DNA of 44,018 nucleotides from Escherichia phage vB_EcoP_B. A program made the translations under genes and the position numbers. The stretch is from the sequence record NC_047806.1. One strand, given 5' to 3'. The notes under the pieces were generated by a model. It saw only the letters and a list, made by a program, of their open reading frames with translations, was not told the DNA's origin and did no database searches. Shown piece after piece: positions 5,625 to 34,512 of this stretch (positions are counted from its first letter, which is position 1; every line of letters starts with the position of its first letter).

Positions 5625-6637
5625 TCCGCATCATCTCCCCACAAGATTGGGTTCTTATCGGCTCGCCATATATCACCTTTGAATCTAGCCATGTGAGCTA
5701 GGCGACCACATTCAAGCATCAGGTCAAAGGCTTTGCCGATACGATAACCACCTCGGTAATTCTTAATCTTAACTTGTCCATGCCCGAACTTAGCCTTGTA
5801 AGCACCCAGCACTGCCATGTACAACTCTTTCTCTGTCTTACAATCTTTGAGAAGATCATAGGCATATTTAGCACCACGACCTGGTATGCCAGCATAGTTA
5901 TCAATATCATCACCGATAATCATCTGTGCATAGTGGAACATGAGGCCAGCACCTTTTAGATCTTTGACTTGCCCATTAGCCTTACGGCGTAGCTCAAGCC
6001 AGCCCATAGGCTCTACCCACTTCTTCTCTTGACCCGGCTGTAGATGCCAACCGGGAACAATCATCAAATCCTTATCCAAGGAAACGATGCAAGTATCAGA
6101 GAATGATTTATGCTCTGGACTACCGATAGGGAACTCGTTACCTGTATCTTGCTGGAAGCGGCGGTGGCTGTCCCATTGTGCGATACTCATGAGGTCGTCT
6201 GCTTCCTCTCCATCTGCCAAGATTGCACCGTGAACCTCTAAGAGATGCTCTCGCAATTCATAGAAGAATGGAGGCTTCTCGGTCTTACGTTGACCTTTAT
6301 AAGGCTTGGTGAATGCTAGGCGGACACGGAAGTTAGCTTCTGATTTCGTCATGAATAACTTAGCTGCATCACATTCTGCTGCATACACCCAAGAGTTAAG
6401 CAAGGAGTTCACACGGTCACACGCTTGCTTACACTCAGGCGTATCTTTGATTGATGGGACTTGTCCTGACTTAACACGAGTTGTGGCTCGTACATAAGTC
6501 ATGTCGCTGATTGTATACGCGACGATGTAAGGCAACATATCGGCATCTATTAAAGCGATTCGATTACCTTCAGTCGGCCACAGGATGAGATTATTGTCTT
6601 CCGATACTGTAGCTCCGAAGTCGAAGTTTGGTCGCAT
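5609..6637 (-). CDS. 5'-3' exonuclease (gp6-like), about 342 aa
   Basis: ORF track 5609..6646 (GTG start) trimmed to ATG with AAGGAG SD; LIDADMLPY and DKDL/GIPG blocks like T7 gene 6 exonuclease. Confidence 0.75.
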   Translation of the reverse strand: MRPNFDFGATVSEDNNLILWPTEGNRIALIDADMLPYIVAYTISDMTYVRATTRVKSGQVPSIKDTPECKQACDRVNSLLNSWVYAAECDAAKLFMTKSEANFRVRLAFTKPYKGQRKTEKPPFFYELREHLLEVHGAILADGEEADDLMSIAQWDSHRRFQQDTGNEFPIGSPEHKSFSDTCIVSLDKDLMIVPGWHLQPGQEKKWVEPMGWLELRRKANGQVKDLKGAGLMFHYAQMIIGDDIDNYAGIPGRGAKYAYDLLKDCKTEKELYMAVLGAYKAKFGHGQVKIKNYRGGYRIGKAFDLMLECGRLAHMARFKGDIWRADKNPILWGDDAEWLAN

Positions 6638-6822
6638 GTAGGCCACTCCTTCAAGAAGGAGGACACCGCATCATGGAGGTTCTGTCTTAACCAATAGTCA
6701 TCCCATTGTCTCACCTCCACTAGCTTCTCACCAGTTTTGTAATCATAGGCAACCCCAATATACTGTCTGGTGATTGCATTGTAGCTAATGTCCAGTTCAA
6801 TTCGAGATTCAATAGTCGGCAT
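6550..6822 (-). CDS. hypothetical protein (90 aa)
   Basis: ORF track; ATG 6820-6822 with GGAG SD; 3' end overlaps exonuclease start by about 90 nt. Confidence 0.35.
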   Translation of the reverse strand: MPTIESRIELDISYNAITRQYIGVAYDYKTGEKLVEVRQWDDYWLRQNLHDAVSSFLKEWPTCDQTSTSELQYRKTIISSCGRLKVIESL

Positions 6823-6939
6823 AATTCATTCTCCAATAACTATTACGCAAAAGACCCTGCCTACACTAAGGCAGACAGGGCATTAGATGAGGTGAGCGTG
6901 ATAGTCAACTAGGACTAACAGAGGCTACACCTGCTATTA

Positions 6940-7311
6940 TCAAAACTCTTCCTCTTCGCTAACCGGAGCTTCCGGTGCAGACACTTCTACTGCCGGAGCT
7001 TCAGCTTCTTCAGCAGCTTTGACTTCTTTCACTGGTTTACCAGCAGCAATCCAATCCAGATATTCAGCTACGATGTTAGCCTTACCGATCTGGGCTTTGT
7101 CAGCCTGCTCAGGGAAGCAAGCACGAGCGAACTCCAGACCAGCAGCGAAGTTACCCATGCTGTCAATCTTAGCCTGAGCTTCTTCACGGGTATCGTAAGC
7201 CTTAGTACCAGCTACCAGTTGATCAGCTTCATCGACGATAATGAAAGACTCAACGGATACCAGAGCAGCACCTTTAACAACACGGTTTACGATAGTTTCA
7301 ATCTTGAACAT
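6940..7311 (-). CDS. hypothetical protein with acidic C-terminal tail ending in Phe (123 aa)
   Basis: ORF track; AAGGAG SD; C-terminus ...PEAPVSEEEEF; directly downstream of phage promoter at 7364-7384. Confidence 0.55.
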   Translation of the reverse strand: MFKIETIVNRVVKGAALVSVESFIIVDEADQLVAGTKAYDTREEAQAKIDSMGNFAAGLEFARACFPEQADKAQIGKANIVAEYLDWIAAGKPVKEVKAAEEAEAPAVEVSAPEAPVSEEEEF

Positions 7312-7363
7312 ATTAAATTCTCCTTTTGTTGGTTATGGCATTATCGCCGATTAAAATTCTTCT

Positions 7364-7384
7364 CTTCTATAGTGTCCAGTAAAT
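7364..7384 (-). promoter_or_regulatory. phage RNAP promoter
   Basis: ATTTACTGGACACTATAGAAG. Confidence 0.7.
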
Positions 7385-7399
7385 ACCGGACACCGATTT

Positions 7400-7415
7400 G
7401 TCTCACACGTGAGAC
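7400..7415 (-). other. GTCTCAC..GTGAGAC palindromic hairpin element
   Basis: gtctcacacgtgagac; between gene end 7417 and promoter 7364-7384. Confidence 0.5.
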
Positions 7416-7416
7416 T

Positions 7417-7635
7417 TTATAAAACTGTGTTCACCTGAGCAATGTCATGCGCCGGAAGCGATACGCCGTGGCGTTTCCCCGTAGCTGGGTCGCTGTAGTT
7501 CACCACGTGCTGTCCGTCGCGCCAGATGTAGTGCAGGTCGGCATATGTGTCCCCTTCAGAGAAGGAGTGAAAAGTGTTGCCGCCAAGAGTTGTAATTCCT
7601 TTCTTGCAGTGCAGGGTTACGATTTGTACTTTCAT
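7417..7635 (-). CDS. hypothetical protein (72 aa)
   Basis: ORF track; ATG with TTAAGGAG SD. Confidence 0.5.
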   Translation of the reverse strand: MKVQIVTLHCKKGITTLGGNTFHSFSEGDTYADLHYIWRDGQHVVNYSDPATGKRHGVSLPAHDIAQVNTVL

Positions 7636-13673: not shown

Positions 13674-15662
13674 TCAGAACTCACTTTCTTCATCGAAGTT
13701 AGTCTCTTCTATAGTGTCTGGTAAATCAGGTACTTCTTGTTGCCTTGCTTCACCTGTATCAAATGACTTAGTACGAGCTTGTGGTTCCATTAAACGTCCG
13801 GTTTGAATGTCACCCTTGAGCATGACCTTGGTTCCAGTGTAGATACCTTGGTCGCGGTCTTTGACACATGAGATGTACGTGGTAGTCCTTTCATCAAGCG
13901 TTTCAGCTCTTGTATTACGCTCAATCCCCAAGGCGTAAGATGCCCAGAATCCGATAGCGCCTGAGCCTCGGAAGTCAGAAAGGATAACTTCGCCACCTTC
14001 TTCGTGTTGGGTACGGTTTGCCGGAGGACGTGTAAGGTGAGAGACAAGGAAAATCGTAACCGCATGTCGATCTTTGATAGTACCAATTCGTTTGACGCAT
14101 TCATCAAGTGCACCAACCTTCCCACCAAAAGCACGCTCATCTAATTTAATCCCCGTTAAGTTATCAATGATGATATTAGAAATGCCCATAGCCTCAAACT
14201 CTAGGCAAGTTTGCTCTACCTTCTCCATAGAATAGTCACCCTCTAGGTCAGCTACAAACAGCTTCCCTGTATCAGCTACATAATCAATGGCGGCATTAGC
14301 CTCTTCCTCAGTATAGTCGAACACCTCACGGTATCCGTCTTCTTTCGGGTCATTGGTTGGCGGTAACTCAATGCGCTTATCAATCCACTTACCGATAAAA
14401 GCACGGGACACCTTGACCATCGGGTCTTCTGTAGAAATGATGCCTACAGATTCACCATGTTCTTCAATAAGATGTTTAACCACTTCGCGGAGGAACTCAG
14501 TCTTACCTACACCAGAGCCTGCACCTACAATGATAAGCTGGTTCTTACGAATACCTAGCGTTACCTTGTTCAGCTTAGGCCAAGGCCATGATAGCCCTTG
14601 CTCTGGACGTGCAGCCTTGAGCTTATCCCTTTGAGATGCGATAGATTTAATATGGCTACCAAAGACTTCATCAGATGACTTGGCATTAAACCAAGCATCA
14701 ACAAACTCTTTAGCCTTGCCAGCCATCAATGCCTTGTTAGCATCTTTGCAACCAGAAGGGTATTCAAGGATATAGGATTTGCCAGGAAACAGGCGAGCCG
14801 CTTGCTGATTCTGCTTCTGCCCTACCTCATCTCCATCAAAACCCCATATAATCTTCTTAAATTGGGCGATGTGTTCACGGTTCTGTACTATCTCTTCAAG
14901 GCAAGACTCACCTTTATTGACAGACCATACATGGTAAGGCTGGCCTTCCCACTTAGTACCCTTGGCAGAATCAAGGAGCATTTGCTGTGCTGCTAGTGCA
15001 TCCAGTTCGCCGCCGACAATGAGCAAGTGATCCTTTCGTCTTCCCTTGTCTAACACGTGAGACAAAGTATTCATCCCGAAAAGATCTTGCATACCAAAGA
15101 GTTTACCTAAATGACCAAACTTAAAGTCTTTAGGTAATGTGCGACACTTAGCGCCTACTAGTTCACCTTTCTCGAAGCGTGGATAGTAATGCCGTGAGAC
15201 TCTACCCTCTTCATCGTGTCCGACACGTACATCATACAATGCGCAAATGTCGCCGCGAATGTGTCGGGAAACAAGATTCTTACGCTTAAGCGTGAGGAAC
15301 CATTCAACATCAAGTTTCCACTCTGCTTCTTGGTCTGCCCTTTCTTGCTCATTCATGACCTCCCATCGGTCTTTCATACGCATGCCACCAAGTGCGATGG
15401 CGCGTAACTTAGGGTCGCTTATCTTCCCTTCCTTCTCCATCTCTTTGAATTGAGAAGGTGTATATTTGATATTGCCAGTAATAGGCAACTCGGTGATCTC
15501 GATGCCACCATCTGGCTTATGATAGTAAGGCTTGCCGTTATCGTGGAAATGACCACGGTTACAATAGCCAGCACCATCATCAAATATCATGAGATGATTG
15601 CCGGATTTATCGTGTCCATTCTTCTGGCAGGCAGGGCACGGGATGTTATTAATAATAGCCAT
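13674..15662 (-). CDS. bifunctional DNA primase/helicase (gp4-like), 662 aa
   Basis: ORF track; N-terminal zinc ribbon CPACQ...CNRGH, Walker A GAGSGVGKT, acidic C-terminus ending ...FDEESEF; AAGGTG SD. Confidence 0.85.
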   Translation of the reverse strand: MAIINNIPCPACQKNGHDKSGNHLMIFDDGAGYCNRGHFHDNGKPYYHKPDGGIEITELPITGNIKYTPSQFKEMEKEGKISDPKLRAIALGGMRMKDRWEVMNEQERADQEAEWKLDVEWFLTLKRKNLVSRHIRGDICALYDVRVGHDEEGRVSRHYYPRFEKGELVGAKCRTLPKDFKFGHLGKLFGMQDLFGMNTLSHVLDKGRRKDHLLIVGGELDALAAQQMLLDSAKGTKWEGQPYHVWSVNKGESCLEEIVQNREHIAQFKKIIWGFDGDEVGQKQNQQAARLFPGKSYILEYPSGCKDANKALMAGKAKEFVDAWFNAKSSDEVFGSHIKSIASQRDKLKAARPEQGLSWPWPKLNKVTLGIRKNQLIIVGAGSGVGKTEFLREVVKHLIEEHGESVGIISTEDPMVKVSRAFIGKWIDKRIELPPTNDPKEDGYREVFDYTEEEANAAIDYVADTGKLFVADLEGDYSMEKVEQTCLEFEAMGISNIIIDNLTGIKLDERAFGGKVGALDECVKRIGTIKDRHAVTIFLVSHLTRPPANRTQHEEGGEVILSDFRGSGAIGFWASYALGIERNTRAETLDERTTTYISCVKDRDQGIYTGTKVMLKGDIQTGRLMEPQARTKSFDTGEARQQEVPDLPDTIEETNFDEESEF
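13706..13726 (-). promoter_or_regulatory. phage RNAP promoter inside 3' end of helicase gene
   Basis: ATTTACCAGACACTATAGAAG. Confidence 0.6.
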
Positions 15663-15880
15663 TAGTTCACCTTAATAGTTCTGGGTTGGTAAGAGTCAGC
15701 TTTTCTACGCTTAGAGATAAACTTCTTTGCATCCCTTTCGGTGCAGAAGATAGCCTCTGTATCAGTATAGCCAATAGGCATCATACACGTGACCCATATT
15801 AAGCCTAATACTTTACGTTGCACTATGTAGCACTCTTGCCCGTGACTATTTAAACAGGTCTTGATTCTGTATTTAGCCAT
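15662..15880 (-). CDS. hypothetical protein (72 aa)
   Basis: ORF track; ATG 15878-15880; stop overlaps helicase start (TAATG). Confidence 0.45.
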   Translation of the reverse strand: MAKYRIKTCLNSHGQECYIVQRKVLGLIWVTCMMPIGYTDTEAIFCTERDAKKFISKRRKADSYQPRTIKVN

Positions 15881-15883
15881 AAC

Positions 15884-16012
15884 TTAGAACCCCCACGCAG
15901 CGCGTTTAGATGCACGGTCACGGACAGGTTTATTCAGCTTCTTGCCTTTCTTCTGCCCTTCTTCCATGTCAAAACGGTTAGCTTTACGGGTCATCTTCTC
16001 AAAGTTACGCAT
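15884..16012 (-). CDS. gp1.1-like small basic protein (42 aa); not in ORF track (<60 aa)
   Basis: ATG 16010-16012 with GGAG SD just downstream of promoter 16038-16060; translation MRNFEKMTRKANRFDMEEGQKKGKKLNKPVRDRASKRAAWGF resembles T7 gp1.1 (MRNFEKMT..., from memory). Confidence 0.5.
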   Translation of the reverse strand: MRNFEKMTRKANRFDMEEGQKKGKKLNKPVRDRASKRAAWGF

Positions 16013-16037
16013 GGTTAAATCTCCAAAGTGAGTTAAT

Positions 16038-16060
16038 CTTATCTATACTGTCCGGTAAAT
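16038..16060 (-). promoter_or_regulatory. phage RNAP promoter variant (upstream of gp1.1-like ORF)
   Basis: ATTTACCGGACAGTATAGATAAG (C-to-G change in core). Confidence 0.5.
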
Positions 16061-16065
16061 ACGAA

Positions 16066-16081
16066 GTCTCACATGTGAGAC
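16066..16081 (-). other. GTCTCAC..GTGAGAC palindromic hairpin element
   Basis: perfect 16-bp palindrome gtctcacatgtgagac, 5 nt upstream of promoter 16038-16060. Confidence 0.55.
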
Positions 16082-16084
16082 AAC

Positions 16085-16223
16085 CTAGGTCTGCCCTTCC
16101 TCTAAGTGGTAATAAGAGGAAGGAAGAAGGTAATAGGTATTCCTAGATAACCTATATAACCTTTAATACCTATTACTTCCTTTATATCCTTTATCTTCCC
16201 TTTCTTTCCCGTCTCCGACGGCT
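16085..16223. other. AT-rich repeat-containing spacer between tandem phage promoters; candidate primary replication origin
   Basis: non-coding, AT-rich, repeated AGGAAG/TATTACC/AGGTTAT motifs; flanked by promoters 16224-16244 and 16038-16060 (T7 origin sits in the analogous place). Confidence 0.35.
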
Positions 16224-16244
16224 ATCCTATAGTGTCCGGTAAAT
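16224..16244 (-). promoter_or_regulatory. phage RNAP promoter (first after RNAP gene)
   Basis: ATTTACCGGACACTATAGGAT. Confidence 0.6.
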
Positions 16245-16247
16245 AAA

Positions 16248-16263
16248 GTCTCACATGTGAGAC
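16248..16263 (-). other. GTCTCAC..GTGAGAC palindromic hairpin element
   Basis: perfect 16-bp palindrome, 3 nt upstream of promoter 16224-16244. Confidence 0.55.
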
Positions 16264-16298
16264 ACGTTTTATGTTAATGAAATGTTACAGGTAGTAGG

Positions 16299-16327
16299 TA
16301 AAAGAAAGCCACTCCCGAAGGAATGGC
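16299..16327 (-). terminator. intrinsic terminator after RNAP gene (early terminator candidate)
   Basis: RNA GCCAUUCC-UUCG-GGAGUGGC (8-bp stem, UUCG loop) followed by CUUUCUUUU. Confidence 0.55.
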
Positions 16328-16336
16328 CTATTAATA

Positions 16337-18964
16337 TTATGCGAAACAATAGTCTGAAACTAAGATTTCGTTAAGGTCAAACTCCCCTTGCTCTGGTACT
16401 TGGATTCCGGTGTCTACTAACCAACGCTCTTCGTGCACATCTAGCAGGTTTTGCAGGGCATTATGGTTTTGATACATCTTAACCATTTCTTCCCTTAAGC
16501 TATCCCGCAGGTCTGCGGTACGTCCTGCATGAGTACCGAAAGAATCATGGATGACTGCAATGGATGTAATACCTTTATCCACTAGGTCACATACAGTCAG
16601 AATCAGGTGGCTAGCATCGTGACCATGGACGAAGTTAGGAGCAGCCGCACCCATCATTGCCGTTTCATCAACTACATCTGTTTCAATCTGGAGACTCATC
16701 TTGATTTCACCCATCAAGCAAGTGGATACGCGGAGCATATCTGTAGCCATTATCTTTTGTTGCAAGATGAAGCCAGTTGGTAAGGGATATTCTAAGCCTT
16801 CGTTTCTTTTAGCTGCGAAACGTGCAAGCTGACGAATCATTTTCATTGCCACTATAGGAGCTTTAACCACTTCCGAGATAGAAGGCCAGATTAAAGCTGT
16901 CATATAGTTATAAGCTGCGCTAGGTGTCAGGCTGTCTTTACGGTCATTATCAAAAGGGTGTACAGGATTGGCGGTACGCCCTTCCGCAATAGCCCGTTGG
17001 GCCTCTTTTTCTTCTAAATCAACGATATAATCAATCACTGACTCACGGCAGGTTAGACGTGTGCTGCCATAAGGTAGTGTCATTACGGGCTTTTTGGTCA
17101 GGCCGCGAGTGATTCCTATCATATCCCACGCACTAGCCATACTACGCAGTTCCGCACCTGTTAAAGTCACGCTGCCAGAAGTGAAGGTTTCCGCATCCTC
17201 TGCATTCATGTATGCATAATTCTTCTGAATTACTACCTGCGCAACGGCACCATAAATATCTTGAGGAGAGTCAGAGGGCTTAAGGTTTACTGCTTTCGCA
17301 CCTACTGCATCGCGTAGCATAGCACTGTAGTGCTGGATACCAGAACAACTACCATCTTGATGGACTGGGAGGTGCGTCATGAATTGGTCTTGCGTGCCTT
17401 CATCCAGTGCATCCAGATAACGCGCATATTCAAAGCACCATGCAAGGAAGCCGTAAGGGGAGTCGGCATTTACCCATTGAGTGAAGGTCAGCGGATCCGC
17501 TGCAATGTCGCGGCACATGTCTTGAAATTCACCATCCAGCACGTTAGCGGTGCGCACGTCAAAAGTTTTCTTATCCCAACCCCAGTTATTAGCCCCGTTC
17601 ACCAAAAACCACTTAAGCGCCTCAGCGCTATCAAGACGCTGCCCTTCGGTAAAACGGAGCAATGCCTTGCCTAAGTCGTTTGATTGCGGAGAGAGCGTGC
17701 TAGATTGCGCGTAGACGCGGCTGCGGCTGTCCAGAGCATACACGAAGTATATTGCGTCAAATTGGCTGTATTTACGGGCCTGCCCTACCATGCGGACGGT
17801 CGCCGCCGATTTGCTGCCGCGCTTAGTCTCAGCGGTATACAGCTTGGTGCATTCACCTTTCCAGTTGATGAAGGCTTGCCATTGTTCCGGTGTTAACATT
17901 TCTTTCAGTTCACGTCCTCGCAGGTGCTGGAACTCTAACGGCACCGGATTAGCTGGCTTGTTCTCACGGTCGATGAGTGGTTTAAAGGAAGGTACACCAT
18001 AGCCGAGGTCTAGACGTATAACGTCCTCCACAACCTGTAAAACCTCTTTATTAACCTGCCACTTAGTTGCCTGCAAAGCGTTAACAGCCTTATAAACGGC
18101 TGGCATTTGCTTTTTGGTCAGCTTGCGGACGTGCTCACGATTGCCTTTTACCAGACGAATACGGCTTGCTACTTTCTCAGTATGAAACCCACCGTTAAAA
18201 GGTGATACCCAAGGGCGGGGAGGTATAACGCAAGGTGCATAGGCAGGGCTGAGCTGCGCTACATGTTCCTTAAATGCAGTTATCCACTCTCCAACATGTT
18301 CACTGGTCTGTAAATAGTAAACACCATGCTTTCCGCCGTTAGTGCGCAAGGTACGAAGGAAGACAGGTTGACCATTGAAGAATACACTATTCTCCAATAT
18401 TTCGAGCAAGGTCATACCGATTTGCAGCAAGGTGTCTTTAGGCCATGCCTCCCAACGGGAGAAATCCGCGTCACGGTCAGCAACAGATTTCTCAGCTACT
18501 ACCGCTACGTTGTGCGCATGACGATAAGATTTAGTCTTGCTAGCCTTAAGCGACTTCTTCACTTTCTCAAAGTACTTAGCTGCGTGACCTTCCAGCTTGC
18601 TAAAACGTACTTGGTCTTCGATGCGGTCCGCTACATTCATAGCGATGGCTTGTAAGGTAACGTCTGTATTCAGCATGTCCATAACGATTTTCATGGTGAT
18701 ATATGCTGCTACTTCGTTTTCTACGCAGTTAATGAAAGCTAATGCACGCGGTGCGCGGCCTCTTTTACCTTCGTACTCTTCCTTATAAGCCTGAATACCT
18801 TCCGCCATAGGTGCGATTAGTTCGGACAATAAGCGGCGATTCCATGCCGTGTCTGATTCATTACCGGATGCAATCTGGCGTTGTTGGTCCGCTTCAAAGC
18901 GACGGATACCGCCGTTAAACATTTCTTCTTCAAGTTGAAGTTGAATAGCGTGTAGGTCTTGCAT
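16337..18964 (-). CDS. single-subunit DNA-directed RNA polymerase (T7/SP6-like), 875 aa
   Basis: ORF track; [18 protein letters not shown] and C-terminal ...DYCFA match T7 RNAP catalytic and foot motifs; length close to SP6-group RNAP; AGGAG SD. Confidence 0.9.
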
Positions 18965-20269: not shown

Positions 20270-20290
20270 CTCTTATAGTGTCAGCTAAAT
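20270..20290 (-). promoter_or_regulatory. phage RNAP promoter-like sequence in early region
   Basis: ATTTAGCTGACACTATAAGAG (SP6-like TGACAC, TATAAG instead of TATAGAAG). Confidence 0.4.
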
Positions 20291-21821: not shown

Positions 21822-21850
21822 AATGTACTACTAGCTTTTGCCTGTGTCAA
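21822..21850 (-). promoter_or_regulatory. candidate host sigma70 early promoter
   Basis: minus strand TTGACA - 17 nt - TACATT, upstream of first early gene. Confidence 0.5.
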
Positions 21851-34494: not shown

Positions 34495-34512
34495 TGTCTC
34501 ACATGTGAGACA
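34495..34512 (-). other. GTCTCAC..GTGAGAC palindromic hairpin element
   Basis: perfect 18-bp palindrome tgtctcacatgtgagaca between internal virion protein genes. Confidence 0.55.

Follow-up and report, generated by a model that had tools for sequence, protein, structure and literature searches.

A conserved hairpin directly after the RNA polymerase gene of a K1E/SP6-type phage is probably the intrinsic terminator of the early operon

In a megablast search with positions 15600-17200 of the window (the whole 44,018-nt stretch of DNA analysed here), Escherichia phage K1E was 99.2% identical, and 90 related records were returned, mostly of Escherichia and Salmonella SP6-like phages. K1E is classified as Autographiviridae, Molineuxvirinae, Vectrevirus, and is SP6-like. 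All large open reading frames (ORFs) and all 12 phage-promoter matches, against 0.01 matches expected, lie on the minus strand of the window, the coding strand. Compared with the phage genome, the window is circularly permuted and reverse-complemented, so that the physical end of the genome, together with its terminal repeat, falls inside it. At ~22380, the right-end endosialidase tail-spike region adjoins the left-end early region, which places the genome-end junction there.

The gene of the phage single-subunit RNA polymerase (RNAP) stops with a TAA codon at 16339-16337 (minus strand), about 6 kb from the left end of the genome, and is the last gene of the early region. Gene 8 (16012-15884, minus strand) follows after a spacer of 324 nt. 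At the post-RNAP locus, the GenBank records of K1E, K1-5, and SP6 annotate coding genes only and no regulatory features. The features of the locus and those compared with it are collected in the table.

Table. Features of the post-RNAP locus and related elements (window coordinates, except for the SP6 copies)
Feature	Coordinates	Strand	Basis or remark
Best sigma-70-like match, TTGACA-17-TACATT (10/12)	21822..21850	minus	pattern match
Second sigma-70-like match, same score (10/12)	21155-21127	minus	pattern match
Promoter-like site ATTTAGCTGACACTATAA (also written TGACACTATAAGAG, ATTTAGCTGACACTATAAGAG)	20273..20290	minus	promoter scan, conservation
Phage single-subunit RNA polymerase gene (K1E gene 7), 875 aa	16337..18964	minus	ORF list, K1E annotation, C-terminal translation
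Terminator hairpin	16306..16329	minus	folding, covariation in 15 relatives
U-tract UUUCUUUU	16300..16307	minus	sequence; T-rich tail in every Molineuxvirinae relative examined
Spacer ACCTACTACCTGTAACATTTCATTAACATAAAACGT (also written ACCTACTACCTGTAACATTTCATTAACA)	16264..16299	minus	between terminator and first palindrome
16-nt palindrome GTCTCACATGTGAGAC, then UUUAUUUA	16248..16263	minus	weak second hairpin, -6.9 kcal/mol
First consensus phage promoter ATTTACCGGACACTATAG	16227..16244	minus	G at 16227 predicted as +1 (SP6 promoter analogy)
Second phage promoter ATTTACCGGACAGTATAG	16043..16060	minus	second palindrome copy (16081-16066) before it, gene 8 after it
Copies of the dispersed palindrome	34511-34496, 21933-21918, 16263-16248, 16081-16066, 15063-15048, 13652-13637, 12474-12459, 7415-7400	minus	
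SP6 palindrome copies (locus L129)	493, 6093, 6264, 7071, 8547, 9383, 14255, 17752, 30569		
Homologue of SP6 t5, GCCCUAUCUACC-UUGCG-UAGGUAGGGU + UCUUUUUUU	41387-41361	minus	after major-capsid ORF

A hairpin starts 7-9 nt past the RNAP stop codon, in the non-coding spacer. Past the stop, the minus strand reads UAUUAAU, AGGCCAUUCC-UUCG-GGAGUGGCUU, and UCUUUUACCU in succession. The 5' arm (16329-16320) and the 3' arm (16315-16306) enclose a UUCG loop (16319-16316) closed by a C-G pair, that is, a cUUCGg tetraloop. In the 8-bp core, 16327-16320 pair with 16315-16308 through five G-C, two A-U, and one U.G pair, and the core can be extended to 10 bp through a G.U and an A-U pair, in which the first two U's of the following tract can take part. 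This tract has U at seven of its eight positions, with one C interrupting. An earlier note on this DNA had described an 8-bp GC-rich stem with a UUCG tetraloop and a U-rich tract, 10-40 nt after the stop codon. The stem length is exact for the core, which begins 9 nt past the stop and agrees with the distance given, and the loop and tract are both present, the span 16299-16327 corresponding to the core hairpin plus its tail; the wording "GC-rich" was mildly overstated, with five G-C pairs among 8-10.

The folding energy calculated with RNAfold, which the earlier note had proposed as a check, was -15.5 kcal/mol, and none of 200 shuffles was as stable (z = -4.3, 37-nt context); in a 56-nt context the z-score was -3.3. 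When 146 nt were folded, the hairpin stayed isolated and its stem showed no extension. A consensus scan of 10-22 kb returned it as the top terminator-like site (10 pairs, five of them G-C, and a loop of 4). Moreover, the coding strand of the whole 44 kb was scanned for hairpins of -14 kcal/mol or better with a U-run, defined as a single hairpin followed by at least six U's in 8, and three sites were found against a mean of 0.17 expected from 30 dinucleotide shuffles, five of which had any such site. All three are intergenic: one follows gene 6 (19027-18989), one the RNAP gene, and one the major-capsid ORF. Intrinsic terminators were taken as a G+C-containing stem of ~5-14 bp with a loop of 3-8 nt and a U-rich tract of ~7-9 nt directly 3' of it; the hairpin has such a stem, loop, and tract, occupies a non-coding location at the end of a transcription unit, and is under selection for pairing, not for sequence, as described below. 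A permissive Rfam scan of 15800-16500 returned no family matching it. A bidirectional terminator was ruled out, because on the plus strand the stem is followed by AUUAAUAUUAUG, which is not rich in U, and because none of the large ORFs or phage promoters lies on that strand.

The conservation of the hairpin was examined at loci with relatives of the RNAP C-terminus, gathered from IMG/VR and GenBank phages. Every Molineuxvirinae relative examined has a hairpin and a T-rich tail 4-22 nt past the RNAP stop, and in all of them the U-rich tail is one-sided, directly 3' of the stem. The K1-5-type stem is AGGCCAUUCC/GGAGUGGCCU, and the SP6 hairpin, AGGUCAGCC-UUCG-GGCUGGCCU-UUUCUUUU, aligns with the window hairpin with compensatory changes. 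Other relatives have wholly different stems (GGGAGGC-UCCG-GCCUCCC, GGGCGGCC/GGUCGCCC, and AAGCCCUGGC/GUCGGGGCUU), and AAGGGCAGAC/GUCUGCCUUU is a further variant among them. In the window and K1E, one C is missing at 16308-16306 (GGAGUGGCUUU) compared with K1-5 and most relatives (GGAGUGGCCUUU), so that GGCC becomes GGC and the basal G-C pair is turned into G.U; the stem is thereby slightly weakened (-15.5 vs. -18.2 kcal/mol with the C present, a loss of ~2.7).

Beyond the subfamily, most relatives down to ~40% C-terminal identity have a hairpin and U-run 4-25 nt past the RNAP stop. SP6-like phages with ~40-47% C-terminal identity, such as the Colwellvirinae Pseudomonas phage Nerthus and those of the Vibrio phiA318 type, mostly carry a strong but unrelated hairpin followed by a U-run. 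Five loci with 42-44% identity (L055, L063, L066, L068, and L080) have no hairpin with a U-run at this place or only a weak distal one, and in three other loci the hairpin and U-run lie 30-70 nt downstream. Nearly all loci below ~40% identity, the T7-like ones included, have no hairpin with a U-run within 110 nt.

Pairing in the stem was then quantified across 15 distinct relatives. Standard pairs were present in 93.9% of the cells, as against 68.4% in shuffles, and seven of the ten pairs had changed on both sides. The covariation score was 0.635, compared with 0.176 in shuffles. None of 500 shuffles reached the observed pairing or covariation score, and 26 of 500 reached the count of double-change pairs. 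When the 3' partner was slid by 1-3 columns, pairing fell to 27-63%. In addition, the G.U pairs in the stem work in sense-strand RNA only. The alignment was anchored on the loop with the hairpin known beforehand, which favours the structure, although the effect is large regardless; by MAFFT, one gap column occurs in the loop-anchored alignment, in three sequences, and affects only cells outside their shorter stems. The structure of the hairpin, and not its sequence, is conserved.

The hairpin was compared with T7 TE, an annotated E. coli transcription terminator at 7588 in NC_001604. T7 TE reads GGCUCACC-UUCG-GGUGGGCC-UUUCUGCGUUU, and the core arms of the window hairpin read GCCAUUCC-UUCG-GGAGUGGC-UUUCUUUU. 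Both have the same 8-bp stem length, the cUUCGg loop, and a tail starting with UUUCU, and each is found past the phage RNAP gene, close to where the early region ends, on the one strand that is transcribed. This near-identical design is the strongest argument that the hairpin works in the manner of TE, and the likeness may reflect either common descent or convergence. The placement, however, differs. TE follows gene 1.3, the ligase gene (6475-7554 in the T7 record), as the earlier note had stated, and lies ~1.8 kb past the RNAP gene, whereas the window hairpin directly abuts the RNAP stop. The TE-like positioning suggested in that note holds in that the hairpin is downstream of the RNAP gene at the early/middle boundary, and its immediate adjacency to that gene differs from T7. 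Furthermore, TE is downstream of phi1.1A, phi1.1B, and phi1.3 and of the primary origin, phi1.1A and phi1.1B lying directly after gene 1 in the T7 record, whereas the window hairpin comes before the first consensus promoters and an origin-like module.

Terminators of SP6-like phages have been predicted at the same place. One was predicted after the RNAP gene in UAB_Phi78 (PMC4837284), and that article, with reference to Dobbins et al. 2004, states that the UAB_Phi78 terminators have counterparts at identical positions in SP6. In Vibrio phage phiA318, the post-RNAP terminator is called TE (PMC4099482), and its hairpin is the one found here in locus L054. The predicted terminators of SP6, UAB_Phi78, and phiA318 share with the window hairpin both the location directly after the RNAP gene and the proposed role, and the window hairpin is the ortholog of the post-RNAP terminators predicted in SP6-like phages. 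A post-RNAP terminator is already known in kind and position and is an ordinary element. Searching the literature on SP6-like phages (K1E, K1-5, and SP6) yielded neither mapped 3' ends nor in vitro termination measurements at the post-RNAP site, and no experimental test of the terminators predicted in SP6, UAB_Phi78, and phiA318 was found. The class I terminators T7 Tphi and SP6 t5 likewise consist of a hairpin and a U-run, but these are late-region elements that follow the capsid gene and were shown to stop the phage enzyme, whereas the window hairpin is at the early/middle boundary. The window has its own t5 homologue after the major-capsid ORF, with a hairpin identical to that of SP6 t5 and a slightly different U-tail.

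On this evidence, the hairpin is best explained, with a probability of about 0.8, as a Rho-independent (intrinsic) terminator that closes the early operon of a K1E/SP6-type phage and ends early transcription by the host polymerase. The proposal in the earlier note of an intrinsic terminator after the RNAP gene is supported, as the anatomy, the position, the covarying structure, and the T7 TE-like design all agree. We infer, further, that the host polymerase is its main target and that termination is efficient. Host RNA polymerase would initiate at sigma-70 promoters near the left genome end and transcribe the early genes, the phage RNAP gene last. The two sigma-70-like matches in the table are candidate host early promoters feeding the terminator, found by pattern in a scan in which the number of such matches was not above shuffle expectation. 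Once past the stop codon, the polymerase would transcribe the hairpin and then the UUUCUUUU tract, and the weak rU:dA hybrid would make it pause. The fast-folding cUUCGg-capped hairpin would then form in the RNA exit channel, and the transcript would be released a few nt into the U-tract. Remaining at the 3' end of the mRNA, the hairpin may also protect it from 3' exonucleases. The host polymerase would be excluded from a downstream module that begins about 80 nt on, with two phage promoters flanking a long purine-rich hairpin, and from the replication genes after it, and both would be transcribed by the phage enzyme. That the terminator stands before this module, and not after it, would keep the host polymerase out of the module.

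The 324-nt spacer forms a conserved module, in which the terminator is followed, in order, by a 36-nt spacer, a palindrome, a promoter, a small hairpin, a purine- then pyrimidine-rich imperfect inverted repeat, a second palindrome, and a second promoter, with gene 8 coming next. The spacer is nearly invariant in K1E-, K1-5-, and SP6-type phages, where it is more conserved than the terminator stem, and is absent in Pectobacterium-type and more distant relatives. The first palindrome ends 3 nt upstream of the first consensus phage promoter, which lies 60-80 nt downstream of the terminator and is predicted to mark the start of phage-polymerase (middle) transcription. A small hairpin, CCGUC-GGA-GACGG (16221-16209, minus strand), is located 6 nt past the predicted +1 of this promoter, where it would give the transcript a conserved stem-loop at its 5' end. 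SP6 and K1-5 have the identical hairpin; Pectobacterium-type phages have CCAUC-GAA-GAUGG in its place, and another clade has CCUUC-GGA-GAAGG. Between 16244 and 16043, the two promoters flank an imperfect inverted repeat with arms at 16124-16141 and 16165-16182 and short repeats of the TAGG/AGGTA type. In SP6, Pectobacterium, Vibrio, and Pseudomonas relatives, the terminator is followed by the same arrangement, with short repeats of other sequence. The permissive Rfam scan of 15800-16500 gave only sub-threshold miRNA-like matches, to the long inverted repeat at 16104-16206. In T7, the region after gene 1 has two promoters followed by an AT-rich stretch, which is the primary replication origin. 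In layout, the module at 16244-16043 resembles the T7 primary origin (phi1.1A/phi1.1B and the AT-rich region), to which it may correspond.

The palindromes of this module belong to a dispersed set. The 16-nt palindrome GTCTCA-N4-TGAGAC occurs in eight copies in the window against 0.21 expected, and these are syntenic with eight of the nine SP6 copies. The SP6 copies read GTC(C/T)AA-N4-TTGGAC, so both arms have changed in concert. Nerthus and phiA318-type phages have variants with the same apex. In seven of the nine SP6 copies there is a U.G wobble, which can pair in sense RNA only. Three copies in the window lie 3-16 nt upstream of phage promoters, and three others, starting at 34511, 13652, and 12474, precede genes and have stems lengthened to 13 bp by flanks whose compensating changes are specific to each copy; these 13-bp stems have energies of -18 to -20 kcal/mol as sense RNA vs. 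-10 to -13 as antisense. The palindromes appear to constitute a hairpin family of the sense-strand RNA, sharing a conserved apex, and its members could serve as processing sites, as pause or terminator signals for the phage polymerase, or as protein-binding sites. A literature search for the palindrome sequences found no papers.

Another hairpin stands on the other side of the RNAP gene. It lies at 19027-18989 (minus strand), between the gene 6 stop (19028) and the RNAP start (18964), and is the most stable terminator-like structure on the coding strand, with an energy of -18.6 kcal/mol (-22.2 in a 58-nt context, z = -5.5), and is followed by UUUCUUUCA. It has two tiers, an upper stem of 10 bp being separated from a lower one by an internal loop. 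SP6-like relatives keep this structure with different sequences, with compensatory changes in 9 of 17 pairs; the SP6-type counterpart has no U-rich tail and is overlapped by a promoter-like motif, TTGACT-17-TAAGAT. T7 has an RNase III site before its gene 1, and the 19027-18989 hairpin appears to resemble such a T7-type site more than a terminator.

The presence of two conserved hairpins bracketing the RNAP gene raises the question of whether the hairpin after the gene is itself an RNase III (or other) processing or stabilising site instead of a terminator, as the T7 RNAP gene is bracketed by RNase III sites. T7 R1.1 is likewise a hairpin just after gene 1; it is, however, a long irregular helix that is cleaved by RNase III and carries no U-run, whereas the window hairpin combines a short perfect stem with an obligatory U-run. 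RNase III substrates have a helix of ~20 bp, often with an internal loop, but the post-RNAP hairpin has just 8-10 uninterrupted bp, which did not lengthen when 146 nt were folded, and it matches no Rfam family. Moreover, every Molineuxvirinae relative examined has kept the U-rich tail, which is needed by termination and not by RNase III. With a helix this short and a U-run this conserved, an RNase III site was rejected as very improbable. Even less credible is a DNA-level element of the origin-like module (a cruciform or a protein site) or a chance hairpin. The hairpin does adjoin a module laid out like the T7 primary origin, with two phage promoters and an AT/purine-rich inverted repeat, and is preceded by an A-rich stretch. 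Nonetheless, the stem sequence is free to vary while pairing is kept, including through G.U pairs that form in sense RNA only, and a U-run occurs on one side only, in every case the 3' side of the stem. A chance origin is ruled out by the shuffled controls and by the conservation of the hairpin in different subfamilies. Together with the covariation, these observations led us to reject both forms of this explanation.

Both the host and the phage polymerase may meet the hairpin. The promoter-like site listed in the table overlaps the 3' end of gene 4, stop codon included. It stands ahead of genes 5-7, ~1.3 kb before the RNAP start. SP6 has the core, TGACACTATAAGA(G), at the corresponding place, and 17 of 20 related loci contain a conserved match. 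Such a conserved site suggests that the phage polymerase probably also reaches the hairpin. Phage polymerases are able to terminate at hairpin-plus-U sites: SP6 RNAP stops 85% at SP6 t5 in vitro, and T7 RNAP stops 12-63% at bacterial or lambdoid terminators in vitro (PMC11347151). The t5 of that study was considered as the post-RNAP terminator and set aside, because it is the post-capsid one. Together with a possible upstream phage promoter, such termination makes a dual role plausible, and the t5 homologue in the window is similar in shape to the post-RNAP hairpin. The hairpin might thus be a dual or even mainly phage-polymerase (class I) terminator that bounds a self-contained polymerase operon, with the stop of the host enzyme secondary, a reading that we regard as tentative and distinctly less probable than an early terminator for the host enzyme. 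Against it, the upstream site departs from the window consensus at -12 and -10, where it is more SP6-type, and has an A where +1 aligns, and K1E, unlike phiA318, was described as having no phage promoter just upstream of the RNAP gene (PMC4099482). T7 has phi1.1A, phi1.1B, and phi1.3 upstream of TE and its class II genes downstream of it, and Dunn and Studier are reported to have found in 1983 that T7 RNAP largely reads through TE. Moreover, a strong block to both polymerases would be harmful if genome entry is driven by transcription, as in T7.

By a related but rather unlikely arrangement, the hairpin would act as a polymerase-selective gate, stopping the host polymerase and passing, or only partly stopping, a phage polymerase that had initiated at the conserved and unusual promoter-like site where gene 4 ends. 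All consensus phage promoters of SP6-like phages lie beyond the terminator, and under this arrangement the upstream site would be what lets the phage enzyme take over transcription across it. The upstream promoter would then perhaps also serve transcription-driven genome entry, and the terminator would shield the origin-like module from host transcription.

The value of the early terminator proposed here is mainly one of annotation, as it marks the early/middle boundary of an SP6-type genome and can be added as a regulatory feature to K1E-like records. As a compact and conserved terminator, it is also a possible part for synthetic biology. The conserved-apex hairpin family and the two-tier pre-RNAP hairpin, observed alongside, probably merit the attention of specialists more than the terminator does. 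For the phages themselves, the comparison with TE, in which a near-identical design occurs at a different placement, indicates that the T7 and SP6 groups have the same parts wired differently.
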